Virus record (IMG/VR): IMGVR_UViG_2585427768_000001
Coordinates: 1-11,761 of that record
DNA length: 11,761 bases
Direction: 5' to 3' (one strand)
From: a virus
Taxonomy: Duplodnaviria > Heunggongvirae > Uroviricota > Caudoviricetes
The position numbers and the translations under genes were made by a program. Every line of letters starts with the position of its first letter. Positions within the stretch are counted from its first letter, which is position 1. Below, piece by piece: positions 1 to 11,761 of this stretch. The notes under the pieces are model-generated. The model did not search any database. It had not been told where the DNA came from and saw nothing but the letters and a program-made list of their open reading frames with translations.

Positions 1-2283
1 GCAGGGGATCCCCTGCCGTTCGTATGAACGGCGCAAAATCGTGTTGTCGAAGTTGGCTCCATTTCCCCAGACCTGAACAAAAAATTCACCGGAGTTTTCG
101 TCGATAAATTCCCGCAATTGTAACAGTGCATCATCTAACGGGATTTCATCGGTCATAATGGCAGATTGCGCTTCGCGTGATTGCTTAAGCCACCATTTAA
201 TGGTGTCCCGATCAATGACTCCGCCAGCAGTTTCCAGATCGATAGTCTTACTAAATTCCGGTCCCATATCTCCGGTTTGCGGATCGAAAAATATTGCACC
301 TATTGAGATGATCGGGGCATCAGGATTTTTTCCCATGGTTTCAAGGTCTATCATTAGATGGTCACACGTCCTGCTGGTGGATGTGATTACGTGATGACTG
401 TTCACCTTAATTGAGTGATTTGCCGTCTCGCCAGTTTCATTATCGCTATCGTGATGCTGATTGCCGCCAGTGTTCTCCTTGTGTGGATGTTCAGCGCCTT
501 CCATTTCCTCCGGATCATCTTCCTGAACTTCAACCTGATACTCTTCATCGAATGTTTCCTGGTATGTTGCGTCGCCCATCACCGCGCCACAATCAGGGCA
601 ATTGCCGCCGCCGGTCTGACCGCAGGCGGTGCAGACTTTTTCCACTTCCTGTTGCGCCACTGGTTCAGGCTGTTTCGTTTCTGGCTCGTTTTGTAACGCA
701 TTTGGGCTGTTTTGTTCCGCTTTTTGGTAGTTCCGTTCCGATTCATGCTGGTTCTGGTTTACAGAATCGCGGGTCTGGATCCCCTTAACCCATTTCGGAT
801 CATTCGGGTCGCTAATCCCTGCAACAAATTCTCCGCGAGAGGCAGCAAGCAACTTATCGGCGTCAGGCTGGCTGATATTGGCTGCCTGCATAATTTTGTT
901 TACTTCGTCAGCGGTAACTTTTACCGGCCCTGGTTGTGCGGTCGTGTCAGATGCACCAGTATTTTGTTGTGAACCTGAGTATGTACCGTTTTTGTGGGCG
1001 AAATATTCTTCTTTCGTGATTTCAGTAGCCCCGGCAGCCAGTGCCTTATCCAGACCAGAAAGTTTGTTTGCGCGACCGTATTTTTCGCCATCCTTGTCGG
1101 TGAAGAGGAAGTAGAACGGCCCCTCACGCTCTACAGATGGTTCGACTTCCACTTTGCATTCGGTTTTTTCGTTGTCCGGAATTGCCGTTTCCACTGCATC
1201 AGTTTCTGGTACTGGCGACGAGAGAGTATCAGTTGCGCTCTGATTTCTTCCTTCATCTTCAAACACGCCCTTTGTAGTCAGGTATTCAGTAATGTATTTG
1301 TTCAGTGCCACAGGGTCTTTGTGAATGTCGATCGGACGTTCACGGACAAGGCCAAAAATAGTCTGGCGGTCGTAGCGAAGGGCATCAGGCTGTTTGCGCA
1401 TTGATGCCGAGATACGCTTCCAGTCTTCGCGGTCGTTGTCGATAACTTCATTTTTTGCCCAGCGATGGATGCTGCCGTCAATGTTTCCGGCATCCACATC
1501 ACCAGGCCAGAGAGCGTAGGCCAGTTCGTCATCCAGTGTTTTCCATGTCTGCTTGTATTCGCGATGAATGGCAGCAATGACCAGGCTGATTTTTCCTGTT
1601 GAATTTTCAGTGTGCTGTTGATTGACTCTGGCGCGGGCGAGATCAACAACAGACGTGTATTTTCCGGTTTCCTTGCGTTCACCTTCGCGACGTTTTTTCC
1701 AGATGCGCATCTCTGCCTGAATTTCGGGCCATTTGGCACCAGGCTTACATTTATGCTTAACCCACCCGATGGCATGCAGCTTAAGCTCCGGATACATGGC
1801 GTTAACATCTGGCATTTTCATCAACGCTTCAACGATATGTCCGTCGAATGTTGCCATGTCTTCCTGCAACAATTCCTGTGCGCTAATAACCATATCAACG
1901 GTGATGTTTTCACATGTGTCGAACTTAACCATGACAGCGTTCTGTACTTCAGGGGCCAGCTTGTCAAAAGTGACGTTCATCGGATCGGATTCAGTCTCAA
2001 CCGGGACAAAGGAAGCAGACTCCTCATCCCAGCGGTTTTCCTGCATATATTCAGCATCCCAGGAATCGAGGGCAGGGCGGGGTATACCGGGTTTATCCTC
2101 GCAGACAAGAAATTTATAAGCGCAGTCCTGAGCAGCCGGATAATGTTCCAGGAATTGCCAGTGAAATTTTGCGCGGGCGCGACGTTCATCACCGGCTTCA
2201 ATGGCAGTGGCTACAGCGACGGCACCTTCTTCCTTTATTGCCTGTTCGTCCGGAATGGCGGCGCAAATAAAGACTTTACTCAT
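1..2283 (-). CDS. recE: RecE-like exodeoxyribonuclease VIII family protein, N-terminal 761 codons; C-terminus lies beyond the window start
   Basis: Minus-strand frame is open from the ATG at 2283..2281 (SD GAGG 9 nt upstream on the minus strand) to position 1; I scanned every plus-strand triplet in this frame and found no tta/cta/tca. Absent from the ORF track because no stop lies in the window. Translation begins MSKVFICAAIPDEQ and contains KLLAASRGEFVAGISDPNDPKWVKGIQTRD (recalled as RecE-like), a CxxC-N7-CxxC zinc-ribbon-like motif, an acidic linker, and DEDD-type exonuclease motifs (HLMIDLETMG; NGANFDNTIL). Sits upstream of racC/kilR-position genes as in Rac. Confidence 0.7.
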   Translation of the reverse strand, partial: MSKVFICAAIPDEQAIKEEGAVAVATAIEAGDERRARAKFHWQFLEHYPAAQDCAYKFLVCEDKPGIPRPALDSWDAEYMQENRWDEESASFVPVETESDPMNVTFDKLAPEVQNAVMVKFDTCENITVDMVISAQELLQEDMATFDGHIVEALMKMPDVNAMYPELKLHAIGWVKHKCKPGAKWPEIQAEMRIWKKRREGERKETGKYTSVVDLARARVNQQHTENSTGKISLVIAAIHREYKQTWKTLDDELAYALWPGDVDAGNIDGSIHRWAKNEVIDNDREDWKRISASMRKQPDALRYDRQTIFGLVRERPIDIHKDPVALNKYITEYLTTKGVFEDEGRNQSATDTLSSPVPETDAVETAIPDNEKTECKVEVEPSVEREGPFYFLFTDKDGEKYGRANKLSGLDKALAAGATEITKEEYFAHKNGTYSGSQQNTGASDTTAQPGPVKVTADEVNKIMQAANISQPDADKLLAASRGEFVAGISDPNDPKWVKGIQTRDSVNQNQHESERNYQKAEQNSPNALQNEPETKQPEPVAQQEVEKVCTACGQTGGGNCPDCGAVMGDATYQETFDEEYQVEVQEDDPEEMEGAEHPHKENTGGNQHHDSDNETGETANHSIKVNSHHVITSTSRTCDHLMIDLETMGKNPDAPIISIGAIFFDPQTGDMGPEFSKTIDLETAGGVIDRDTIKWWLKQSREAQSAIMTDEIPLDDALLQLREFIDENSGEFFVQVWGNGANFDNTILRRSYERQGIPC

Positions 2284-2375
2284 TTTGTTTTACCTCATTA
2301 CAGATTTAAGGGTGAACAAATCCCTGCCATTGCTGGCATATAAGAATGAAACCGGATATTTATTACGGAACTGTT

Positions 2376-2567
2376 TTAAAGACCTGCCGGGATTTCGTTA
2401 TTATCCTGGTGAATAACTTTATCGACCGGGTAACAGTTACCGGGAATTTTCTGTTCGGTTGCTGCAGTCACACACTCCTGCATTGTCCTGTGAACACTGA
2501 CTGCAATATCAACTGGCTCTCCGGAAACAAGAAAAACTGTCAGAACAAGTGCAAATGCTGTATTCAT
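2376..2567 (-). CDS. Hypothetical small protein (63 aa) with hydrophobic N-terminal segment; racC/ydaE-position gene
   Basis: ATG at 2567..2565 overlaps the TGA of the upstream gene (ATGA coupling), with AGGA 8 nt upstream. Product MNTAFALVLTVFLVSGEPVDIAVSVHRTMQECVTAATEQKIPGNCYPVDKVIHQDNNEIPAGL. The track's longer 2376..2621 ORF has a poorly spaced SD. Confidence 0.5.
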   Translation of the reverse strand: MNTAFALVLTVFLVSGEPVDIAVSVHRTMQECVTAATEQKIPGNCYPVDKVIHQDNNEIPAGL

Positions 2568-2752
2568 TGCCAGCATCCTTTTTGTATCGGACGTAAACGG
2601 GCCAGCATTGAAAGAATGCATATTTTATTTAATAGCTCCCGTTCGTGTTTTCTCTTGTTAATGGCATCTTCAGTAAATACAGGGTTACTGATATTGACAC
2701 CAATTTCAAAACAACCTTCAGACGTATTAACGTTTGGTAATAACGTTTCCAT
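2564..2752 (-). CDS. Hypothetical small protein (62 aa); kilR-position gene of the leftward early operon
   Basis: ATG at 2752..2750 preceded by GAGGA with 7-8 nt spacing on the minus strand; product METLLPNVNTSEGCFEIGVNISNPVFTEDAINKRKHERELLNKICILSMLARLRPIQKGCWQ; stop overlaps the start of the next gene. Confidence 0.5.
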   Translation of the reverse strand: METLLPNVNTSEGCFEIGVNISNPVFTEDAINKRKHERELLNKICILSMLARLRPIQKGCWQ

Positions 2753-3004
2753 TATCGCGTCCTCAACAATGAATTTTGTGATGCGGTGCCTGGTGCCTCC
2801 AGGTGACGTTAACCAGTTAACAATTAACGCCGGATACAGAGAATCCACCCATAACACTGTTTTTGGTTTTAACTGTTCCGCGTGCGCTCAGCCGCATTCA
2901 CCACATCACAAAATTCACTTTAAAAAGGGCGGCAGAGCAGTCACGGAGTAAAACTGATACCGCCAAACGTCACCAGAAAATTGATAACAGAGGGCGTTGC
3001 AGCG

Positions 3005-3041
3005 GGGTTGTCACTTAAGCGTATGGTCAACCTGACAACCC
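3005..3041. repeat. Perfect inverted repeat, 9-bp arms (GGGTTGTCA / TGACAACCC) with 19-bp spacer, in a 560-bp non-coding gap
   Basis: Read directly from the sequence; no flanking T-run on either strand, so not an intrinsic terminator. Candidate protein-binding site or RNA stem-loop. Confidence 0.5.
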
Positions 3042-3314
3042 GGTGTCCTCAACGGGGGAAGAAATACCCCCGCCATACTTACCGCCGCGCCATTTCGCGG
3101 ATTGCCACAACCGGAAGCGCACGGTCGACGAAAATTTAACGACAGGCTATCTATGAACCAGCTACCTCGCCGTGCGCTTTCGCGTTATGGTCTGACTTTT
3201 CAGGGAAATATCCTTTCAGTAAACTGTCAGTGCCGGATGCTCACCCGTGTCCGGCGCACGCACTCCACCTCACCCGTGGAGAACTCCTTAATCACCAACC
3301 CTCAGGAGGGTGAA

Positions 3315-3590
3315 ATGTCGACTGAAAATGATGAAATCATTAACTCCCTGATACGCCAGATTAATAATTTTGATAAAGCATTGCAACATGCTGCGGCGCG
3401 TAGTGATATAACTCTTTTAGCAATTTCATTTCTTGCATCTGTTATGGATAAAAATGAAGTCGTACGACAGAGTCTTGTTGATTATATCGACTCGCTTCAA
3501 CCCGGCACTTTCAATCATGAGAGCTTCAATCATGAGAAAGAGCATGTTAAGTCTGTAATTAATTCTCTTATTTTGAATCAAAAGAATTAA
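3315..3590 (+). CDS. Hypothetical protein (91 aa), AT-rich gene in sieB position
   Basis: ATG 3315 preceded by AGGAGG 5 nt upstream; in frame with track ORF 3102..3590, whose upstream extension is GC-rich, Arg-rich and has no SD. Product MSTENDEIINSLIRQINNFDKALQHAAARSDITLLAISFLASVMDKNEVVRQSLVDYIDSLQPGTFNHESFNHEKEHVKSVINSLILNQKN. Contains a 15-bp in-frame tandem duplication (3510..3539). Confidence 0.6.
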   Translation: MSTENDEIINSLIRQINNFDKALQHAAARSDITLLAISFLASVMDKNEVVRQSLVDYIDSLQPGTFNHESFNHEKEHVKSVINSLILNQKN

Positions 3591-3900
3591 TGCTTTTTGT
3601 TGCAAAGTAATTTTCAAGGGGTTCTATTCGAATCCCTTTCTTTTTCATTAACAAGCCAAACCCCTTATCAATGATGTCCATTAGATCCAGGAAGTATTTT
3701 TCATGTAAATCCTGGTTATAAGAGAGCTGCTTCTCTTCGTACAGCCCGATAAAGGCTCGGCGTACGTTACCGGATATATTGTCGATGGTTTCTTTTTCTA
3801 CGGTACTCAGGTCAAGAGTCGCCAGTTGAGAGCGAACCACATTCGATGCCATTTCCTGGAATGGGACTGGTAAATCTTTAAATTCCATCGTCAACCTCAT
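3568..3900 (-). CDS. Hypothetical protein (110 aa); second gene of the leftward pL-like early operon
   Basis: Track ORF; ATG 3900..3898 overlaps the TGA of the upstream 77-aa gene (ATGA coupling); alternative start MEFKDLP 12 nt downstream. The 3' end overlaps the convergent 91-aa gene by 23 bp. Confidence 0.55.
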   Translation of the reverse strand: MRLTMEFKDLPVPFQEMASNVVRSQLATLDLSTVEKETIDNISGNVRRAFIGLYEEKQLSYNQDLHEKYFLDLMDIIDKGFGLLMKKKGIRIEPLENYFATKSINSFDSK

Positions 3901-4133
3901 CAGTCAGTGTTTCTGGTTAACCAGCGACGTGCGCCAGCTTCAGTTTTAAACGTTTTGCTTCTGGTATATGTCATCGCGGTAAACGTGCCGTCCTGGTTGG
4001 GAAACACGCCGCATACCAGAGATTCGTTGTTGCCAAGCTCGATAGTATCCATGCTGACCTCATTTCCCCTTAACGCCGGGGTAGCGGAACAAAAACCTGC
4101 TGCATAGTTATTAAAGTTGAACCCTGCCGTCAT
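3900..4133 (-). CDS. Hypothetical protein (77 aa); first gene downstream of the leftward pL-like promoter (ydaG/ydaF position)
   Basis: Track ORF; ATG 4133..4131 with GAGG 9 nt upstream on the minus strand; product MTAGFNFNNYAAGFCSATPALRGNEVSMDTIELGNNESLVCGVFPNQDGTFTAMTYTRSKTFKTEAGARRWLTRNTD. Confidence 0.5.
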   Translation of the reverse strand: MTAGFNFNNYAAGFCSATPALRGNEVSMDTIELGNNESLVCGVFPNQDGTFTAMTYTRSKTFKTEAGARRWLTRNTD

Positions 4134-4232
4134 GTTCTTACGCCTCGGGCTGGCTACTTAACCCCTGACCACTGCCTGGTAACTCGAGGTATTGCCCTGT
4201 ATTGTGTGGGACGGGATGGGTTGGTATGGGAA

Positions 4233-4276
4233 AACTATAGGAAATGCCTAATTACTTGTCAATAGGCTATGCCTAA
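4233..4276 (-). promoter_or_regulatory. Leftward pL-like sigma70 promoter with operator palindrome (OL-like)
   Basis: On the minus strand: -35 TTGACA (4262..4257), 17-nt spacer, -10 TATAGT (4239..4234). Palindrome TAGGCTATGCCTA at 4263..4275 and GCCTA half-site at 4246..4250. Segment 4255..4276 is the exact reverse complement of 4899..4920 on the other side of racR. Confidence 0.6.
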
Positions 4277-4370
4277 TAATTTGGGCGCAACCTAATAGGT
4301 GATGGTTTGTGGGAGAGGTAGTAGGAGTTAACTAACGGGAACTAGGAATTTCCCGTCGGACCATATAAGT

Positions 4371-4847
4371 TTAAGTTCCTGTCTTGGTGATGTTCTGGCT
4401 TTTCCGTTTTGATTCTTGATTTTTCAGATAGTTAGCTACCTTCATTTCCATTGCGGCAATGTAGGCGCGAACGTCATGATCAACCCAACTAGGCTCCGTA
4501 GCATTTCCAGATAAGATGAAAGCCACAATTGCTCTTTTTTCATCAGAGGCGGCTTGATAAAGGCTGTTTATGTCTAAAAGTTCACTTTTTGTATCTGAAG
4601 TGGATGGGGTTGGTATGGGGTATTCGTTAAGCCCCCAATGCTCTGGACCAACCACATCAGAAAAGAAACGCCATAGTTCTGGAAGTTTGTCTTTACTTAT
4701 CGAACCTTTCTTAATCCAGTCATGGATTGATGGTGGTTGGACTTTGAAATGACGTGCGATTTCCGCCTTTGATTTGACGGCTCCTGATGCAATTTTTTTG
4801 TTAATGGCCTGCTCTATCGCTCGGCCTAAGTCTTTACCACTAAGCAT
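4371..4847 (-). CDS. racR: Prophage repressor, RacR-like (158 aa, HTH)
   Basis: Track ORF MLSGKDLGRAIEQAINKK...; HTH-like segment KSKAEIARHFKVQPPSIHDWIKKG; divergent from the ydaS/ydaT-like genes, flanked by operator repeats. Size and organisation match Rac racR from memory, not verified by search. Confidence 0.7.
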   Translation of the reverse strand: MLSGKDLGRAIEQAINKKIASGAVKSKAEIARHFKVQPPSIHDWIKKGSISKDKLPELWRFFSDVVGPEHWGLNEYPIPTPSTSDTKSELLDINSLYQAASDEKRAIVAFILSGNATEPSWVDHDVRAYIAAMEMKVANYLKNQESKRKSQNITKTGT

Positions 4848-4898
4848 TGCTTAATAGTCTCCTATGCGCATCGCGTTAGGCAATCCCTACTCTCGATG

Positions 4899-4944
4899 TA
4901 TTAGGCATAGCCTATTGACAATTTCATTAGGCTAAGCCTAATAT
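4899..4944 (+). promoter_or_regulatory. Rightward pR-like sigma70 promoter with two operator palindromes (OR-like)
   Basis: -35 TTGACA 4915..4920, 18-nt spacer, -10 TAATAT 4939..4944. Palindromes TAGGCATAGCCTA (4902..4914) and TAGGCTAAGCCTA (4928..4940), centres 26 bp apart, overlapping the -35 and spacer. Confidence 0.6.
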
Positions 4945-4971
4945 TGTTGCGTGTTTTTTGGAGTTCATTCG

Positions 4972-5295
4972 ATGAAAAAAGATAACTATTCATTCAAACG
5001 AGCTTGTGCTGTTGTCGGTGGGCAATCAGCAATGGCTAGGCTTTTAGGTGTATCTCCTCCAAGCGTAAATCAATGGATCAAAGGTGTACGTCAGTTACCT
5101 GCTGAGAGATGTCCTGCGATTGAACGAGCAACAAAAGGTGGTGTCCTGTGTGAAGAACTTCGTCCTGATGTTGATTGGACATACTTACGACGCTCGTCAT
5201 GTTATTCGCAGAATATGTCGATGAAGCAACCAAATGACGAAAACGATCATACCCGAAGCATCAAGAGGCAAATGATTCATGAAAATCAAACATGA
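4972..5295 (+). CDS. ydaS: Cro/YdaS-like HTH protein (107 aa)
   Basis: ATG 4972 with GGAG 8 nt upstream; in frame with track ORF 4951..5295. Product MKKDNYSFKRACAVVGGQSAMARLLGVSPPSVNQWIKGVRQLPAERCPAIERATKGG... has the YdaS/Cro-like HTH pattern; first gene from the pR-like promoter. Confidence 0.7.
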   Translation: MKKDNYSFKRACAVVGGQSAMARLLGVSPPSVNQWIKGVRQLPAERCPAIERATKGGVLCEELRPDVDWTYLRRSSCYSQNMSMKQPNDENDHTRSIKRQMIHENQT

Positions 5296-5704
5296 GCACA
5301 TCCGCATGGCGATGAATGCCTGGGCATACCCTGATGGTGAGAAAGTTCCTGCAGCTGAAATAGCCCGGACTTATTTCGAACTGGGGATGACGTTCCCTGA
5401 ACTGTACGACGACAGCCATCCGGAAGCCCTGGCCCGTAATACCCAGAAAATTTTCCGTTGGCTGGATAAAGACACCCCTGATGCTGTTGAAAAAATGCAG
5501 GCTCTGTTACCGGCGATCGAAAAGGCGATGCCGCCTTTGCTGGTGGCCCGTATGCGCAGCCACAGTTCTGAATATTACCGTGAGATCGTCGAACGGAGGG
5601 ATCGGCTGGGGAAGGATGTCGATGATTTTGTTGCGTCAGCGGTTGTTTTGTATGACCAGATGAATCGCGGCGGCCCGGCAGGGAATGCTGTGGTGATGCA
5701 CTAA
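5279..5704 (+). CDS. ydaT: YdaT-like protein (141 aa)
   Basis: Track ORF MKIKHEHIRMAMNAWAYPDGEKVPAAEIARTYFELGMTFPELYDD...; overlaps the 3' end of the ydaS-like gene by 17 nt; position and size match Rac ydaT. Confidence 0.65.
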   Translation: MKIKHEHIRMAMNAWAYPDGEKVPAAEIARTYFELGMTFPELYDDSHPEALARNTQKIFRWLDKDTPDAVEKMQALLPAIEKAMPPLLVARMRSHSSEYYREIVERRDRLGKDVDDFVASAVVLYDQMNRGGPAGNAVVMH

Positions 5705-5726
5705 AAGCACGGTGTTCGGGGGTTTT

Positions 5727-6689
5727 ATGAGCAGCAAGCTTCATGGTCTTGTCTGGGAAGGGTGCGCCTTCACCGGCATGATCTTATCCAGGGTGGCGGT
5801 TATGGCCCGTCTTGCAGACTACAGCAATGACGAGGGCGTGTCATGGCCTGCCATTGAAACTATCCGGCGTCAGATCGGTGCAAGAAGTGAATCCACAGTG
5901 AAATCGGCTATTGCAGAACTGGCGAAAGAGGGCTGGCTGACGAAGGAAGAGCGTAAGGTCGGTGGGCGTAATGTAAGCAATATCTATCGGCTTAATGTGG
6001 AAAAACTCGAAGCAGCTGCGGCGGCGGCGCGTGAGTCATATAAACCGAAAAGAAAAATTAGCCCGGCAAAAAATGACCCGTTAACAGTTGACCCGTCAAA
6101 TATTGACCCCTCAACGGTTGACCCGTCAAATTTTGATGGATCAACTGTTGATAAAAAACTGCCGATTAGGGGGGCGATGATTAACCCCGATCCGTCAGTA
6201 TTAAAACCTGATCCGTCAGATAAAAGATCTTCTTGTCCGGACGCTTCGCAACCGGACCCGCAGACGGCTGAACAGGATTTTTTAACCCGACACCCTGACG
6301 CGGTTGTGTTCAGTGCGAAAAAACGCCAGTGGGGAAGTCAGGAAGATTTGGTGTGCGCACAGTGGATCTGGGGACGAATCGTGAGTCTTTACGAGCAGGC
6401 GGCCAGCGATGATGGCGAGATCACTAGACCGAAAGAACCCAACTGGACAGCATGGGCCAATGACGTTCGCACAATGCGGATGCTGGATGGCAGAACTCAC
6501 AGACAAATTTGTGAAATGTTTGGGCGTCTCCAGCGGGATTCGTTCTGGGTAAAAAACATCATGAGTCCGGCAAAACTCCGGGAAAAATGGGATGAACTGG
6601 TTATCCGCCTGGGGCGTTCGCCTGCGCAGCGTTGCGTGAATCACATTTCTGAACCGGACACTGAAATTCCGCCGGGCTTCAGGGGGTAA
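5727..6689 (+). CDS. Phage replication initiator, O-like (N-terminal winged-helix DNA-binding domain), about 320 aa
   Basis: ATG 5727 with GGGGG 4 nt upstream (track uses GTG 5712). N-terminus MSSKLHGLVWEGCAFTGMILSRVAVMARLADYSNDEGVSWPAIETIRRQIGARSESTVKSAIAELAKEGWL resembles phage replication-initiator HTH domains. A DPS-repeat linker coincides with DNA-level iterons, as in lambda O. Confidence 0.65.
   Translation: MSSKLHGLVWEGCAFTGMILSRVAVMARLADYSNDEGVSWPAIETIRRQIGARSESTVKSAIAELAKEGWLTKEERKVGGRNVSNIYRLNVEKLEAAAAAARESYKPKRKISPAKNDPLTVDPSNIDPSTVDPSNFDGSTVDKKLPIRGAMINPDPSVLKPDPSDKRSSCPDASQPDPQTAEQDFLTRHPDAVVFSAKKRQWGSQEDLVCAQWIWGRIVSLYEQAASDDGEITRPKEPNWTAWANDVRTMRMLDGRTHRQICEMFGRLQRDSFWVKNIMSPAKLREKWDELVIRLGRSPAQRCVNHISEPDTEIPPGFRG
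6073..6148. repeat. Five tandem 15-bp-spaced iterons (core TTGAC-N2-GTCAA), putative prophage ori
   Basis: ATGACCCGTTAA (6073), TTGACCCGTCAA (6088), TTGACCCCTCAA (6103), TTGACCCGTCAA (6118), TTGATGGATCAA (6133), then an A-rich tract ATAAAAAA (6149..6158) and two more GATCCGTCAG copies (6189, 6211). Confidence 0.6.
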
Positions 6690-6729
6690 GTGTTAATTTC
6701 TGGTCATGAGGTAATTTTCAGGAGGGCTT

Positions 6730-7152
6730 GTGGCAAAAGTTTTTACACAAGAAGAGCGGGAAAAAATTAAAGGGCAGGTTGTTGAACTCGTACGCCAGAG
6801 TGGGCGCGAGACGTTACGACAACTGGAAACTAAAACTGGGGCAACAAGATATCTGATGAGCGTTCTGGCCAGAGAGCTGGTTGCCAGTGGCGATGTATAC
6901 AACTCTGGTTACGGGTTATTCCCGTCTGAACAGGCGCGTAAGGACTGGCAAAATGCCCGTAAAAAGCTCTCAAGGGCAAAGCTGAAGAAACCATCTGCGG
7001 TTGATCCGGACCTTATCTGGTCATTACCTGACGGAGAAATACGTCGCTACGACAGGCGTCAGAACATAATCTGTCGCGAGTGCCGGAAGAGCGAAGTTAT
7101 GCAGCGCATATTGTCGTTTTATCAGGGTAATTTTCAGAAGGTGCTGTTGTGA
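6730..7152 (+). CDS. Hypothetical protein (140 aa) downstream of the O-like initiator; no Walker A motif
   Basis: GTG 6730 preceded by AGGAGGG 3 nt upstream; product MAKVFTQEEREKIKGQVVELVRQSGRETLRQLETKTGATRYLMSVLARELVASGDVYNSGYG..., with CxxC near the C-terminus (CRECRK). Confidence 0.6.
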   Translation: MAKVFTQEEREKIKGQVVELVRQSGRETLRQLETKTGATRYLMSVLARELVASGDVYNSGYGLFPSEQARKDWQNARKKLSRAKLKKPSAVDPDLIWSLPDGEIRRYDRRQNIICRECRKSEVMQRILSFYQGNFQKVLL

Positions 7153-7257
7153 GCCAAATTAACAATCGGAACTTCGTGAAGAGAAAGCATAATCCAAATC
7201 TGAATAATTAAGTTCAGCACTGTAAATAAAATTTAATCCTTAACTGGAGGTATATCT

Positions 7258-7470
7258 ATGTCAAATACACAGAAAATTATTAACACTGAAAAATATAACG
7301 AGTGGGTGAAAAAATTCTCTGAACAGATTTTTAAAATTACTGGCGACGAGAATGTGGCAAAAAATGAATTAGAACCGTGGACACCTGAAGGAAACGCACC
7401 AAATTATTGCTGGTGGGAAGTTGATCCGGTTGATGCTGCAAATGAAGCCATGAGTTACCACAACGATTAA
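7258..7470 (+). CDS. Hypothetical small protein (70 aa), AT-rich accessory gene
   Basis: ATG 7258 with GGAGG 7 nt upstream; product MSNTQKIINTEKYNEWVKKFSEQIFKITGDENVAKNELEPWTPEGNAPNYCWWEVDPVDAANEAMSYHND. Confidence 0.6.
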   Translation: MSNTQKIINTEKYNEWVKKFSEQIFKITGDENVAKNELEPWTPEGNAPNYCWWEVDPVDAANEAMSYHND

Positions 7471-7479
7471 TGTCGGGAG

Positions 7480-7497
7480 GCCGCCCGAAAGGGCGGT
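7480..7497 (+). other. Stem-loop with GAAA tetraloop (CCGCCC-GAAA-GGGCGG) between an SD-like GGGAGG and the next start codon
   Basis: Read from sequence at 7481..7496; GGGAGG at 7475..7480; next ATG at 7503; no T-run after the stem. Confidence 0.5.
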
Positions 7498-7502
7498 AAG
7501 AA

Positions 7503-7721
7503 ATGACTACATTATTCAGAAAAGAATATCCGCAAAAAAGTAGAGCGACAGAATTTTTGTTTCTCATTCTGTTTATCGTATTGATGATACCGATATCCCC
7601 TCTAATTTTTGTCTGGGCAATCGGGAAAATAATTGAGCCAGTTACTGAATTGTATACCGACGTTGTATGGGCGTCGTTCAACACACTGCACAATAAAATT
7701 AATCCGTATAAGGAAAACTGA
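7503..7721 (+). CDS. Hypothetical single-pass membrane protein (72 aa)
   Basis: Track ORF; hydrophobic stretch FLFLILFIVLMIPISPLIFVWAIG; stop TGA 7719..7721 lies 1 nt before the next ATG. Confidence 0.55.
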   Translation: MTTLFRKEYPQKSRATEFLFLILFIVLMIPISPLIFVWAIGKIIEPVTELYTDVVWASFNTLHNKINPYKEN

Positions 7722-7722
7722 T

Positions 7723-7986
7723 ATGGCAACTTTGACAAAAAAAGAACGGGCATGGTTGAACGAATTACAGGAAGTTCTTGATCGCTGTCCATCACCGAAA
7801 AAAATTGGCTTTTACACCATTGGCGATAAAAGCATTTACCTGTATGACCTACGCCGCATGGATGAAATCATGGAGGCTCTTGATAATCGTTCGTCGATGG
7901 ATTGGTGTGTTGCTGTTCATGATATGAATGCAGGGTTTGATGAAAAGATTTTGTTCCCCTCATCAGTTGAAAGCACTGCGGGTTAA
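7723..7986 (+). CDS. Hypothetical protein (87 aa)
   Basis: ATG 7723 with AGGA 8 nt upstream; in frame with track ORF 7633..7986; product MATLTKKERAWLNELQEVLDRCPSPKKIGFYTIGDKSIYLYDLRRMDEIMEALDNRSSMDWCVAVHDMNAGFDEKILFPSSVESTAG. Confidence 0.6.
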   Translation: MATLTKKERAWLNELQEVLDRCPSPKKIGFYTIGDKSIYLYDLRRMDEIMEALDNRSSMDWCVAVHDMNAGFDEKILFPSSVESTAG

Positions 7987-7996
7987 GGAGTAACAC

Positions 7997-8164
7997 ATGA
8001 CCACTATTACCAAAGAACGTATTGAATTGTTCATTAAAAACCCGCTTGAAAACGGGCTTACCCGTGGTGAACAAATGGAACTGGCACGGATTGCGCTGGC
8101 ATCGCTGGAAGCAGAGCCGGTTGTGTTCTGGTTTGAAAAATATCAAGAAGGGGCTACGGCATGA
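7997..8164 (+). CDS. Hypothetical small protein (55 aa), short paralogue of the downstream 114-aa protein
   Basis: Below the track's 60-aa limit; found by hand. ATG 7997 with AAGGAG 6 nt upstream; product [55 protein letters not shown]; stop TGA 8162..8164 overlaps the next ATG (ATGA). Confidence 0.5.
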
Positions 8165-8505
8165 CGACTTTTACCAGAGAGCAGTTAATAGCTCACGCAG
8201 AGGAGACTATTGAAGCACAGAGACTGTGCATACCGGGCACAATCGACCATGACATCATCCGCACATATAAGATGGATATTGCTGTTCTGGAAATCGCACT
8301 GGTATCGCTGGCAGCAGAGCCAGCCGGTAAATTGCATGAATACAAACCAGTGGGATATCAGCGTCTGGTCGATGAGTTAACCATGCTGGTAAAGCAGTTA
8401 ACCTGGCAACTGAGGAAAGCGAAGCCAGACTGCAAATTACCGGATAAGGCGATGAGTTATCTGGAGCGGAACGGACTGATAAGCGTGGAGGATATTTTAC
8501 GATGA
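8161..8505 (+). CDS. Hypothetical protein (114 aa), paralogue of the upstream 55-aa protein
   Basis: Track ORF; shares the N-terminal MTTxT(K/R)E and the motif I-A-L-x-S-L-x-A-E-P with the 55-aa protein; DNA-level similarity about 80% over about 25 nt (8093..8119 vs 8304..8330). Confidence 0.6.
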
Positions 8506-8585
8506 CCTGGCCTGAAGCATTAACAACGGTAGGAATTGCGATGGCGGTGGCGCTGGTGGTGTATTCGATTTGCCGCTGGGGATAA
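8502..8585 (+). CDS. Possible hydrophobic micropeptide (27 aa), translationally coupled to the 114-aa gene
   Basis: ATG 8502 overlaps the upstream TGA (ATGA); product [27 protein letters not shown]; no strong SD; too short to judge from sequence alone. Confidence 0.3.
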
Positions 8586-8796
8586 AAACGGTTTGCGGGA
8601 AAAGGAGAGTTAAGTAGAATTGCAGCGGGTGCTTGAGGCTATCTGTCTCAGGCATGAACACCAAAAGGCAGATAGAGAAAAGCCCCAGTTAACATTACGC
8701 GTCCGGCAAGACGCTTAACATTAATCTGAGGCCATATCTATGCTCTACACACGTAGGTTAGCCTCTTACGTGCCGAAAGGCAAGGAGAAGCAGGCT

Positions 8797-8952
8797 ATGA
8801 AGCAGCAAAAGGCGATGCTAATCGCCCTGATCGTCATCTGTTTAACCGTCATTGTGACGGCACTGGTAACGAGGAAAGACCTCTGCGAGGTACGAATCCG
8901 AACCGGCCAGACGGAGGTCGCTGTCTTCACAGCTTACGAACCTGAGGAGTAA
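8797..8952 (+). CDS. hok: Hok/Gef-family type I toxin (51 aa), HokD/RelF-like
   Basis: Product MKQQKAMLIALIVICLTVIVTALVTRKDLCEVRIRTGQTEVAVFTAYEPEE matches the Hok family signature; AAGGAG 9 nt upstream of ATG 8797. An in-frame upstream ATG at 8740 with its own GAGG SD gives the track's 70-aa form. Confidence 0.85.
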   Translation: MKQQKAMLIALIVICLTVIVTALVTRKDLCEVRIRTGQTEVAVFTAYEPEE

Positions 8953-9020
8953 GAGACCTGGCGGGGGAGAAATCCCTCGCCACCTCTGATGTGTCAGGCA
9001 TCCTCAACGCACCCGCACTT

Positions 9021-9049
9021 AACCCGCTTCGGCGGGTTTTGTTCTTTTT
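9021..9049 (+). terminator. Rho-independent terminator after hok
   Basis: AACCCGC-TTCG-GCGGG followed by TTTTGTTCTTTTT; GC stem, tetraloop and T-run read directly. Confidence 0.7.
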
Positions 9050-9196
9050 GTGAAAAAAATTCCCTTAAAGGAGATTTTTTTAACTAAAAAGGTTTACTTT
9101 GCTTTCGTATATGGTAAATTTTAGGAATTAGAATTTAAGCGCCCATCAGGCTTGCGTTAGGCAAGTCTGCTAAATCAACAAATTGAGGATAAAATC

Positions 9197-9556
9197 ATGG
9201 CACTCACTGAATTCGGTAAGGCCGTTAGAAAAGCGAGGATCGATACTGACAGTACTCTTCTGACTATGTCTCAAGAACTGGGCACTACGCCAGCGTTTCT
9301 TAGCGGTTTAGAAACTGGTAGCAAAAAAATACCTCTGAAGTGGGTTAAGAAGATTGATTCTTACTTCAAGGCCAAAGGTGTAGAAATTGAAGGGTTACAG
9401 GAGCTAGCGGCAGTTGCGAATGACTCAGTTCCAGTAAACGGTTTGTCTCAGCAACAGAAAATGCTTGTAGCGGGATTCGCTAAGTCGCAGTTTACGCCGG
9501 AACAGCTAAAGAGTTTTGCAGATTTATTGCAAAAGATTAATAACAATGAGGGGTAA
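9197..9556 (+). CDS. XRE-family helix-turn-helix transcriptional regulator (119 aa)
   Basis: ATG 9197 with GAGG 8 nt upstream; N-terminal HTH_3-like segment LTEFGKAVRKARIDTDSTLLTMSQELGTTPAFLSGLETG followed by an extension of about 60 aa. Confidence 0.75.
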   Translation: MALTEFGKAVRKARIDTDSTLLTMSQELGTTPAFLSGLETGSKKIPLKWVKKIDSYFKAKGVEIEGLQELAAVANDSVPVNGLSQQQKMLVAGFAKSQFTPEQLKSFADLLQKINNNEG

Positions 9557-9558
9557 TT

Positions 9559-10035
9559 ATGTATCAAATGAGAGGTAACAGGGTGTCACCGATGCAAGAA
9601 GAAGAAATAGCCTACAGAGCTATAAACTTCTGTAATGCTATTGGTCTTACAGCCTCAAAGCGCAAAAGAAAGCGTTATGATATGTTCTTTGAAAGCCTGT
9701 CAATTTATGGGGTTACTCTTGACGTCAGGACCGACAAAGAGTGGGAGGCTCTGACGTATGATCTAACTATCGGACATTGTGACCCCGCTTCTCTAACAAT
9801 TACGGTTCCCAATAAAATATATGTGAATGCTTGCCTTGGGGAAGAGCATGCACTTGCTGTTATCTTCCACGAGCTAGGTCATTTGCTTCTTGGACACAAA
9901 GCAGTTTTACACTTTTCAGTTAAAGAACCTACTCGTATTGAGGATGCAGAATGGCAGGCAGATACATTTGCGGATATCGTACTGGAAACAATTGGCGTGA
10001 GAACACAACAGATGTCGTTCGATTTTTATATGTAA
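9559..10035 (+). CDS. ImmA/IrrE-family zinc metallopeptidase (158 aa; HExxH)
   Basis: ATG 9559 is 2 nt after the HTH gene stop, with GAGGGG 5 nt upstream; HExxH motif in HELGHLLLGH plus a downstream E/D-rich segment, typical of the ImmA/IrrE family. Confidence 0.75.
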   Translation: MYQMRGNRVSPMQEEEIAYRAINFCNAIGLTASKRKRKRYDMFFESLSIYGVTLDVRTDKEWEALTYDLTIGHCDPASLTITVPNKIYVNACLGEEHALAVIFHELGHLLLGHKAVLHFSVKEPTRIEDAEWQADTFADIVLETIGVRTQQMSFDFYM

Positions 10036-10036
10036 A

Positions 10037-10060
10037 AGCCCTGCGCTAACAGGGCTTTTA
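10037..10060 (+). terminator. Probable intrinsic terminator after the peptidase gene
   Basis: AGCCCTG-CGCTAA-CAGGGCT followed by TTTTA; the T-run is short. Confidence 0.5.
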
Positions 10061-10164
10061 GGGACGGAAAGTGCGCTAACACATTCCGTAGTGTATGGAG
10101 ATAATCCAATCACAACACTTTTTGTAGACAAGCGAAGTGTAGTGGTTCTCCCAACAAAGTGCAA

Positions 10165-10182
10165 CCTGTGTGGATTCACAGG
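10165..10182. promoter_or_regulatory. Inverted repeat CCTGTG-N6-CACAGG upstream of the Cys-rich ORF; candidate operator
   Basis: Perfect 6-bp arms read directly; lies 21 nt upstream of ATG 10203. Confidence 0.35.
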
Positions 10183-10202
10183 TGAGCAGGGAAAACGAAA
10201 TC

Positions 10203-10352
10203 ATGGCAATGGGTACCTGTCGCAAATGTGGCTGTCCATGTGAGATCATTTTTCGCTACTCTGTGTGTGTAGATGGTGTAATGCGCCACGCGAAAAAAGG
10301 GAAGCCTTTCCCGATCCCACTTTGCAGTTGTAGTGGCAAGCACGCAGCTTGA
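10203..10352 (+). CDS. Cys-rich mini-protein (49 aa; 7 Cys), putative metal-binding
   Basis: ATG 10203 with AGGGAA 9-10 nt upstream; product MAMGTCRKCGCPCEIIFRYSVCVDGVMRHAKKGKPFPIPLCSCSGKHAA; the track's 60-aa form starts at GTG 10170 inside the inverted repeat. Confidence 0.45.
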   Translation: MAMGTCRKCGCPCEIIFRYSVCVDGVMRHAKKGKPFPIPLCSCSGKHAA

Positions 10353-10366
10353 TATTCAGTACTGAC

Positions 10367-10398
10367 AAAACCCGCTTCGGCGGGGTTTGTTTTTTTTT
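10367..10398 (+). terminator. Rho-independent terminator after the Cys-rich ORF; core identical to the hok terminator
   Basis: AAAACCCGC-TTCG-GCGGGGTTT followed by GTTTTTTTTT; the 16-nt AACCCGCTTCGGCGGG is identical to 9021..9036. Confidence 0.7.
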
Positions 10399-10467
10399 GG
10401 CATTCAGGTTTACAATTCGCACGTCAGCCTGAACAACTGGCACCTGCTGCGCCAGCAGAGAAAGACG

Positions 10468-10746
10468 ATGGCGCACAATACCAAATCACACAATTCTGAT
10501 AATTCAGCTGTCTTTGCCAGCAGGCACGGGCGGCGTTCCCGCACATTCAAATCTGATTGGTACCAGCATCCCCCATGTACTGAAGAACAAGCTGAATGGC
10601 TAATTCAGTGCTACCGCAGACACGGATACGAGATTAAGAAAGCCCTCAGCCTCGATTATCGTCACTGGATAATCTCCGTCAGGCTTCCTTACTCTGAACG
10701 CCCACCGCGTCCGTCCCGCACATTCCAGCAACGCATCTGGAGGTAA
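10468..10746 (+). CDS. Hypothetical protein (92 aa), rem-position gene
   Basis: In frame with track ORF 10387..10746 (which starts in the terminator T-run); ATG 10468 with a weak GAGAAAG SD; product MAHNTKSHNSDNSAVFASRHGRRSRTFKSDWYQHPPCTEEQAEWLIQCYRRHGYEIKK... Confidence 0.45.
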   Translation: MAHNTKSHNSDNSAVFASRHGRRSRTFKSDWYQHPPCTEEQAEWLIQCYRRHGYEIKKALSLDYRHWIISVRLPYSERPPRPSRTFQQRIWR

Positions 10747-10747
10747 C

Positions 10748-11291
10748 GTGCGGGTATTACTTCGACCTGTTCTGGTACCGGAACTCGGGCTGGTGATCGT
10801 TAAGCCGGGCCGTGAATCCATGCCGGTATTCCACAATACCCGGGTACTGGTGGAGCCGGAACCGAAAAGCATGCGTAATCTGTCGTCCGGGGTCGTTCCT
10901 GCCGTTCGCCAGCCGCTGGCGGAGGATAAATCATTACTGCCATTTTTCAGCGACGAACGAGTGATTCGTGCTGCTGGTGGCGCTGGCGCATTGTCTGACT
11001 GGTTACTGCGCCATGTTAAATCCTGCCAGTGGCCACACGGCGATTATCACCACAGTGAAACCGTCATTCACCGTTATGGTACCGGCGCAATGGTGTTGTG
11101 CTGGCACTGCGACAACCAGCTGCGCGACCAGACCTCCGAATCACTCGGGCAACTTGCTCACCAAAACCTGTCTGCATGGATGATTGACGTCATACGCCAT
11201 GCAATGAATGGCTCGCAGGAACGGGAATTATCGCTGGCTGAATTATCCTGGTGGGCGGTCCGCAATCAGGTGGCGGACGCGCTACCGGAAG
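10748..11291 (+). pseudogene. DUF968-like (YdfU-like) Cys/His-rich protein gene, 3' part removed by IS insertion
   Basis: GTG 10748 with GGAGG 4 nt upstream, overlapping the upstream stop; Cys/His motif CQWPHGDYHH...CWHCDNQ; the frame runs into the IS terminal repeat at 11292, so the track ORF tail after ...ADALPEV is IS-derived. Confidence 0.55.

Positions 11292-11761
<470 letters not shown>

Follow-up and report, generated by a model that had tools for sequence, protein, structure and literature searches.

A common terminator hairpin brackets an accessory-gene cassette inserted at the hok/sok locus of a Rac-like Escherichia coli prophage

The IMG/VR virus record IMGVR_UViG_2585427768_000001, assigned to the Caudoviricetes, was analysed over its positions 1 to 11,761 (11,761 nucleotides (nt); this whole stretch is called the window, and coordinates without a locus label refer to it). 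The window belongs to a Rac-like lambdoid prophage of Escherichia coli, with the features described below in the early-right part, and encodes a YdaS-type Cro-like protein along with YdaT, DUF977 and DUF1391 proteins. In its right-hand part lies a type I toxin-antitoxin locus of the hok/sok kind, with matches both to the Hok/Gef toxin open reading frame (ORF) and to the sok antisense region, which is closed by a hairpin at which the hok mRNA is predicted to end. This is followed by an accessory cassette that codes for a helix-turn-helix (HTH) protein of the XRE type, an ImmA/IrrE metallopeptidase and a Cys-rich protein of 49 amino acids (aa), then by a second hairpin with the same core, and finally by promoter-like DNA and genes native to the prophage (Table 1). 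Comparison with related prophages shows that the cassette is extra DNA at a site that otherwise carries a single terminator, and suggests that the two hairpins are terminators of separate units, each of which had the same widespread core before the two were joined.

Table 1. Features around the hok site of the window, and other cargos found at the same site in related prophages (labels beginning with L denote loci compared with the window)
Feature	Location	Strand	Evidence and remarks
hok/sok regulatory region	8627..8802	+	Rfam RF01794 sok, 117.1 bits against a gathering score of 59, E 2e-27
mok/hok reading frame	8740..8952	+	hokD proper 8797-8952; Pfam HOK_GEF 2.9e-23; RefSeq hokD annotation in 99.9%-identical L006
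Left terminator, T_hok	9021..9049	+	stem AACCCGC/GCGGGTT, UUCG loop, T-tract TTTTGTTCTTTTT; native to hok locus, single copy in empty sites (same sequence and hok flank in L001, L011, L275)
Inserted accessory cassette	9048..10368	+	missing in empty-site relatives; with one repeat unit, 1348 nt of extra DNA
Predicted cassette promoter	9080..9120	+	imperfect inverted repeat TTAACT-AAAAA-GGTTTA overlapping -35-like TTTACT (9093-9098), then extended -10 TGgTAAATT (9112-9120)
XRE-type HTH protein, 119 aa	9197..9556	+	RefSeq HTH annotation; PADLOC HTH_VI 1.1e-6, weak capH
ImmA/IrrE (M78) metallopeptidase	9559..10035 (RefSeq start 9592)	+	PF06114 2.4e-5, 24.6 bits against a cut-off of 22; annotation
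Internal hairpin	10037..10060	+	just past ImmA stop; GCCCTG/CAGGGC stem, then four U only; -16.8 kcal/mol, z -3.8
49-aa Cys-rich ORF (MAMGTCRKCGCPCEIIFRYSVCVDGVMRHAKKGKPFPIPLCSCSGKHAA)	10203..10352	+	last cassette gene; conserved in all cassette relatives, changes mostly at third positions
Right terminator, T_cas	10369..10398	+	5' flank GTACTGACAAAA cassette-type; core shared; T-tract and beyond hok-site type (compared with L264 and empty sites)
Native continuation of hok site	10399..10746	+	promoter-like region (GGTTTACAATTCGCACG) and 279-nt gene (10468-10746); directly after the single terminator in empty sites
393-nt ORF cargo	L002		copy spacing 665 nt; empty relative L001
1.8-kilobase cargo	L239/L139/L150		copy spacing 1835 nt; empty relative L004 (rem-type continuation)
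Doc-family toxin-antitoxin pair	L236		copy spacing 840 nt; empty relatives L215/L223

The core of the repeat, AACCCGCTTCGGCGGG, is present on the plus strand of the window as two exact copies, at 9021-9036 and 10369-10384, each followed by a T-run, just as an earlier note on this DNA had described from the letters alone; a third site is absent from the window even when up to 2 mismatches are allowed. The pair exceeds what shuffled sequence would provide (expected count 0.01; two or more matches in 0 of 200 dinucleotide shuffles), but 'more than chance' here refers to shuffled sequence only, the relevant null being the frequency of this common natural terminator and not that of a random 16-mer. 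With a repeat finder the pair grows to 29 nt, the copies being 93% identical and 1348 nt apart. In near-identical prophages (L006, which is JKHS016, and L252-L260, of which L252 is from IMG/VR, at 99-99.9% identity) the exact repeat comprises 23 nt, AACCCGCTTCGGCGGGTTTTGTT, with 26 of 27 positions identical overall; relative to these the right copy in the window has a T-to-G change (GGGG). Both sites appear terminator-like in a consensus promoter and terminator scan, with a GC stem of 5-7 base pairs (bp), five of them GC pairs, a 4-nt UUCG loop and a T-run, although the scan is not discriminating (13 terminator-like sites against 12.6 expected) and served solely as confirmation of how these two sites are built. 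The folding energies are -13.9 kcal/mol (z -3.4) for the left copy and -15.2 kcal/mol (z -3.6) for the right, and the copies lie 69 nt past the hok stop codon (8952) and 17 nt past that of the co-oriented Cys-rich ORF (10352), respectively. Thus, by stem-loop, T-tract and position both fit intrinsic (Rho-independent) terminators, and termination is predicted at each.

Prophages that lack the cassette have hok, one terminator and then the downstream gene of the window, as in phage Evi (L001), 96_1414P (L011), E. coli Z1323CEC0012 (L275) and many other genomes. The junction in Evi reads ...CACCCGCACgTAACCCGCTTCGGCGGGTTTTGTTTTTTCCTGGCATTCTGGTTTACAATTCGCACG..., its left part being the hok flank of the window and its right part the window sequence past 10398. 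When 5426 complete E. coli genomes were searched with a synthetic empty junction, the best match was that of L275, contiguous at 98.4%; aligned with the window itself, L275 runs to 9047 at 98.7% identity and picks up again at 10369 at 92%. In L001, L011 and L275, therefore, a single terminator joins the left and right flanks of the window, which is the arrangement that the earlier note had proposed to look for in relatives without the cassette. The synthetic junction is matched at 80% coverage or more in 2837 genomes, an upper bound for truly empty sites, since some two-piece places with small cargos are included. The full-length cassette is found in 48 of the 5426 genomes, always at 98% identity or more and always in the hok...DUF968 context. 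As empty sites greatly outnumber cassette-bearing ones and vary more among themselves (5-9% diverged), the empty state is taken to be ancestral. If, conversely, the cassette were ancestral at the site, the 'empty' sites would be deletions between the direct repeats, and a direct repeat of 23-27 nt would indeed permit precise loss and restore exactly the junction observed. Against this stand the few, nearly uniform cassette-bearing genomes beside the many diverged empty ones, the deviant GC content of the cassette, its relatives in other contexts, and the fact that no isogenic (99% or more) empty junction occurs among the 5426 genomes, so that there is no sign of recent loss; we regard an ancestral cassette as very improbable. 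With the moderate confidence that we place in our favoured explanation as a whole, we propose that the cassette was inserted once, fairly recently and immediately past the hok terminator, at a place where a single terminator had until then bordered directly on the next gene's promoter.

The terminator involved is a generic one. In bacterial contigs sampled at one genome per species, the exact 20-mer AACCCGCTTCGGCGGGTTTT occurs in at least 120 stretches, against about 1 expected by chance; among the matches listed, 122 of 123 are not beside hok and have unrelated flanks, their hosts including Pseudomonas, Burkholderiales, Serratia and Saccharibacteria. Likewise, about 90 distinct non-hok contexts are represented among the matches listed from IMG/VR, and the 20-mer is present in all 5426 E. 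coli genomes, at a median of 7 places. The same sequence, AAAAAACCCGCTTCGGCGGGTTTTTTT, forms the terminator (by position) of the E. coli rplM-rpsI ribosomal-protein operon, yet this is a core chromosomal operon without an associated insertion polymorphism. The earlier note had stated that its reading would be refuted if the terminator recurred at many unrelated loci or if no empty-site variant existed: the former is the case, the latter is not. Because the terminator is generic, identity of the two 16-mers need not mean duplication, while the evidence for insertion is unaffected; the general caution is that a repeated terminator should not be read as a target-site duplication, given that the same 20-mer is present in every E. 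coli genome.

The hok site has also received other cargos. At least 12 different continuations follow the hok terminator, the sequences parting from one another among the first few T's. Three further unrelated cargos share the layout of hok, terminator, cargo, terminator and native continuation, and each has an empty relative with a single terminator and the same continuation (Table 1); in L002 the left terminator copy is truncated inside its 3' arm. Since an E. coli genome has this core at about 7 places only, it is implausible that coincidence struck four times independently, and from this comparison the terminator appears to be mechanistically involved in at least a subset of the insertions at the hok site. 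As to non-hok contexts of these cargos, that of L239 had no match among phage records, that of L002 occurs in two hok-context phages only, and the 275 loci fetched contained no such context either. Two side observations concern the same site. In L010 (E. coli Z0117EC0133; about 1915 and 3495) a four-ORF cargo replaces the hok terminator, with the left copy deleted and the joint falling between CACCCGC and CATAAAG; the sole terminator copy, which has the loop variant CCTC, sits after the cargo, so that the hok mRNA would be without its normal 3' hairpin. In L001 (1886-2008) and L002 (2581-2694) a 'mobile element protein' of about 40 aa is annotated on the opposite (minus) strand across the hok terminator and empty site; this annotation is probably spurious and might misdirect automated mobile-element searches.

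Relatives of the cassette, gathered via the ImmA protein, sit in other phage contexts; their nucleotide identity to the window is 82-85% over 9074-10391 for L262-L265 and about 76% for L270-L273. In the non-hok contexts of L262-L265 and L270-L271 the cassette ends in the same core, (C)AAACCCGCTTCGGCGGGTTTTTTTATG, including CCCGCTTCGGCGGG, and the DNA downstream is a LexA-box/dinI-like gene or other sequence, not the hok site; L272, L273 and the Klebsiella phage of L005 have loop variants of this cassette-end terminator. As both the non-hok relatives and the empty sites carry the core, it pre-existed in the cassette family as well as at the hok site, and the right copy was probably not made as a copy at insertion. 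The suggestion that it simply duplicates the hok terminator is not supported, since cassettes away from hok already end in CCCGCTTCGGCGGG. In L263-L265 a same-core terminator is also present upstream of the cassette, which in L263 results in a direct repeat of 22 nt. For the Klebsiella phage ST13-OXA48phi12.4 (L005), a reading of AAAACCCGCTTCGGCGGG at 3800 as the cassette's own terminator was rejected, as base-level alignment places the end of that cassette in a hairpin with a different loop (CCCGCATTATGCGGG), the same-core terminator lying about 130 nt further on. Separately, IS66-family accessory genes are inserted about 100 nt past the right terminator of the cassette in L264 (3460-4220).

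The positions of the joints can be read by aligning the window with both types of relative. On the 5' side of the right core the window is of cassette type, GTACTGACAAA being present in both the window and L264, whereas on the 3' side it is of empty-site type (TTTTGTTTTTTC.TGGCATTC), unlike the TTTTTTTATG of the cassette relatives. Since the 5' side is cassette-type and the T-tract and 3' side are hok-site type, the right joint lies inside the shared core of about 20 nt. The left joint falls between 9047 and 9048, at the end of the hok T-tract. The T-tract of the left copy, TTTTGTTCTTT, is the L275 allele of the hok site and the right flank (GGCATTC) resembles the Evi allele; the flanks therefore stem from two different alleles, a pattern that more than one crossover would be expected to leave.

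These data bear on a second route to the repeat, in which a process acting on the terminator hairpin, such as a staggered break, hairpin processing or template switching at a stalled fork, copied T_hok as foreign DNA was captured, in the manner of a target-site duplication. It would account for the hok-site-type T-tract features (TTTTGTT) that both copies have and the cassette relatives lack, and for the occurrence at one site of four cargos, each with a duplicated terminator starting (A)CCCGC. However, the core is native to the cassette family and the window is cassette-type just 5' of the right core, the cargos differ in how much is duplicated (13 to about 29 nt), Pfam and PADLOC searches recognize only the HTH protein and the M78 peptidase in the cassette and no transposase, integrase or recombinase, and the sole terminal inverted repeat is the terminator palindrome itself. 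We consider duplicative insertion to be improbable, and a transposon with target-site duplication was rejected on the same grounds of missing recombination enzymes, missing terminal inverted repeats beyond the palindrome and variable duplication length.

The explanation that we favour, and hold to be reasonably though not strongly probable, is that the two hairpins are separate terminators of their own units, that the generic core with its C(UUCG)G tetraloop was present on both partners beforehand, and that the partners were joined by short-homology recombination. The sequences themselves show the repeat, the empty sites, the genericity of the hairpin, the cassette-native core and the junction positions, whereas the recombination pathway is inferred. 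Identity on both partners would guide short-homology recombination via single-strand-annealing recombinases of phages or via RecA, either by successive single crossovers between co-resident lambdoid phages or elements, or by a terminator-flanked cassette looping out as a circle and entering the DNA again at a further terminator copy. The cassette's own terminator would be joined to the hok terminator, placing the right joint within the shared core, while the left joint would be either illegitimate or the product of a second terminator-terminator crossover; the outcome would be the direct repeat of 23-29 nt around the cassette. T_hok would then end the hok toxin mRNA and T_cas the unit of promoter, XRE gene, ImmA gene and Cys-rich ORF. 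In terms of the biology of lambda and of hok/sok, the left copy is predicted to preserve the 3' hairpin of the hok mRNA, and the right copy to insulate the downstream DUF968, RusA and late antiterminator genes from the cassette promoter in the lysogen.

Several observations weigh against this explanation. The shared stretch of 16-27 nt is at or below the published minimal length for efficient pairing (Red-beta, 23-27 bp; RecA, 31-34 bp; PMC3945230), and is thus marginal. Among the non-hok relatives of the cassette even the nearest reach no more than 82-85% identity, a distance at which they need not represent the actual donor or its terminator. Since the left T-tract is the L275 allele, simple integration of a circle would require either that the crossover fell right where the T-tract ends or that the donor had a hok-like terminator. 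At the left joint there is no homology to the cassette relatives, and 9048-9073 match neither the empty sites nor these relatives, which align only from 9074. Finally, no second terminator copy accompanies the cargos rem, L007, L138 and L009, so that terminator homology is not required for insertion at the hok site. The last two points count in favour of a coincidental identity, in which a cassette with its own generic terminator was placed beside the hok terminator by illegitimate recombination and the cores played no part; the extreme commonness of the terminator and its presence in the cassette relatives fit this as well, and illegitimate recombination is reportedly the classic model of moron acquisition of Hendrix and colleagues. 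Coincidence, however, would have to account for a switch between cassette-type and hok-site-type sequence that falls exactly in the shared core and nowhere else in the intergenic space, and for the recurrence of the same layout with three other unrelated cargos that have empty sites of their own. We consider it unlikely, and prefer short-homology recombination between cores that were already present on both partners.

With respect to its content, the cassette can be set against a published definition of a moron, according to which such a unit has its own promoter, its own terminator and a deviant GC content (PMC3594210). It is extra DNA between genes that are otherwise adjacent (L001, L011, L275), its GC content is 37-45% against 50-58% in the flanks, and its terminator is its own, being kept after the same ORF in relatives elsewhere. 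A promoter of its own is predicted as well (Table 1): the inverted repeat, the -35-like and the extended -10 columns of this predicted element are kept in relatives of 82-85% identity from other contexts, although a strict consensus scan did not list them. By the published definition the cassette classifies as a moron-type unit at a mosaic joint, with a predicted promoter and putative expression in the lysogen. The earlier note's picture of terminator-bracketed genes inserted at a terminator junction as a moron cassette stands as regards insertion, with the extra DNA, the GC content and the own terminator in its favour, but not as regards a right copy that is a simple duplicate of the hok terminator; nor is a duplicated terminator the 'usual signature' of a moron, since the definition asks solely for the three properties given above.

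Among the cassette genes, the XRE-type protein has no Pfam match at E <= 0.01, and PADLOC searches with the cassette proteins yield weak capH-, capP- and RmrA-like matches only, without assignment to a defence system. In some of the related phages (downstream flanks of L263, L265, L270, L271 and L005) the cassette lies directly upstream of a LexA box (TACTGTATAAATnTACAGT) and a dinI-like gene; together with the weak CapH and CapP hits of the XRE/ImmA pair, this neighbourhood hints at a DNA-damage-responsive module. The internal hairpin past the ImmA gene recurs in Klebsiella phage L005 with its stem kept and a different loop, and may act as an attenuator or as a site of processing between ImmA and the Cys-rich ORF. 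The latter is unannotated in most RefSeq genomes and had no match in the Pfam and PADLOC searches; from its conservation and the third-position bias of its changes, it is probably a real small zinc-binding protein.

Some further features of the prophage were noted. The hok 3' untranslated region and terminator (8961-9042) score 27 bits with the Rfam model of the Salmonella prophage small RNA IsrK, for which the gathering score is 50; the resemblance lies in the two-hairpin layout only and is no evidence of membership, so that identity with isrK was rejected. A hydrophobic ORF of 27 codons (8502-8585) lies just upstream of hok/sok and overlaps the stop of the preceding gene, and a different small hydrophobic ORF is found in L264 and L265 ahead of the terminator upstream of the cassette. 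Four iterons of the TGACCCGT type, spaced by 15 nt (6053-6127), and an adjacent inverted repeat lie inside an O-like replication gene, and this region (6053-6149) is presumably the replication origin of the prophage. Beyond the 279-nt gene that follows the hok site comes a DUF968 gene, followed in relatives by rusA and the late antiterminator gene. In the window (11285-11761) this DUF968 (ydfU-like) gene loses its frame after about residue 181, compared with an intact 329 aa in L006; the rest of the window is an IS3-family element present at many places in E. coli, so that the prophage carries an insertion sequence.

The arrangement may be compared with several known systems. The morons of lambdoid phages (HK97 and HK022; Juhala/Hendrix definition, reviewed in PMC3594210) are alike in consisting of extra DNA between adjacent genes with deviant GC content, a predicted promoter and an own intrinsic terminator, the cargo here being an accessory regulator/peptidase module. 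They differ in that their definition involves no repeat of a neighbour's terminator, whereas the terminator of the present cassette equals that of its target and contains the joint. In T4-type phages, promoter-early stem-loop (PeSL) cassettes consist of repeated promoter/stem-loop units that mediate modular shuffling and form mini-circles (PMC2839356, PMC4122927). Both systems have repeated stem-loop terminators around small accessory ORFs, with junctions of insertion, deletion or replacement in the motif, and for both, recombination between repeats, including circular intermediates, is proposed. At the hok site four cargos with matching empty sites have their junctions in the repeated motif, but no promoter is repeated along with the terminator, the sequence after the left copies being cargo-specific. 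PeSLs are composites of promoter and terminator in hyperplastic regions of virulent T4-like phages; in the temperate lambdoid prophages considered here the repeat is no more than a generic terminator of 16-27 nt, and the promoter lies outside it.

A third comparison is with the relaxed homologous recombination of Red-beta and RecT, which is alike in producing mosaic joints where temperate phages share short or diverged homology with defective E. coli prophages, the host of the present cassette being a Rac-like prophage (PMC3945230). It differs in that homologies of hundreds of bp were measured there, as opposed to a regulatory hairpin at or below the minimal pairing limit; terminators are not mentioned in that study, according to which about 70% of lambdoid mosaic joints lack detectable flanking homology (PMC3945230). 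As for the target, the left terminator is the 3' end of a hok/sok locus like those of other lambdoid prophages (hokD in Qin, hokW in 933W), and since matches to plasmid hok in E. coli end before the terminator (query 26-415), the latter is specific to prophage-type loci.

Taken by itself, the cassette is a clear but fairly ordinary example of accessory-gene swapping between prophages. It is at the same time a clean natural case, in which filled and empty sites and the context of the donor family are available and the joints can be read at single-base resolution, and it indicates that a very common terminator hairpin can double as homology for inserting accessory genes into a prophage. A wider proposal, which we offer tentatively and with more doubt than conviction, is that generic terminators function in lambdoid prophages as portable, att-like homology patches, so that promoter-gene-terminator cassettes ending in the same hairpin, or in some relatives starting with it too, hop between unrelated positions by short-homology recombination or as looped-out circles, the hok terminator being a hotspot with at least four captured cargos. 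If true, this would be a temperate-phage counterpart of the PeSL system of T4 and would account for part of the mosaic joints that appear to be without homology. If such a process is general, it would provide a simple mechanistic reason why morons are units of promoter, gene and terminator, would account for the accumulation of accessory and defence-like genes at certain intergenic hotspots, and would make the compatibility between sites and cassettes predictable.

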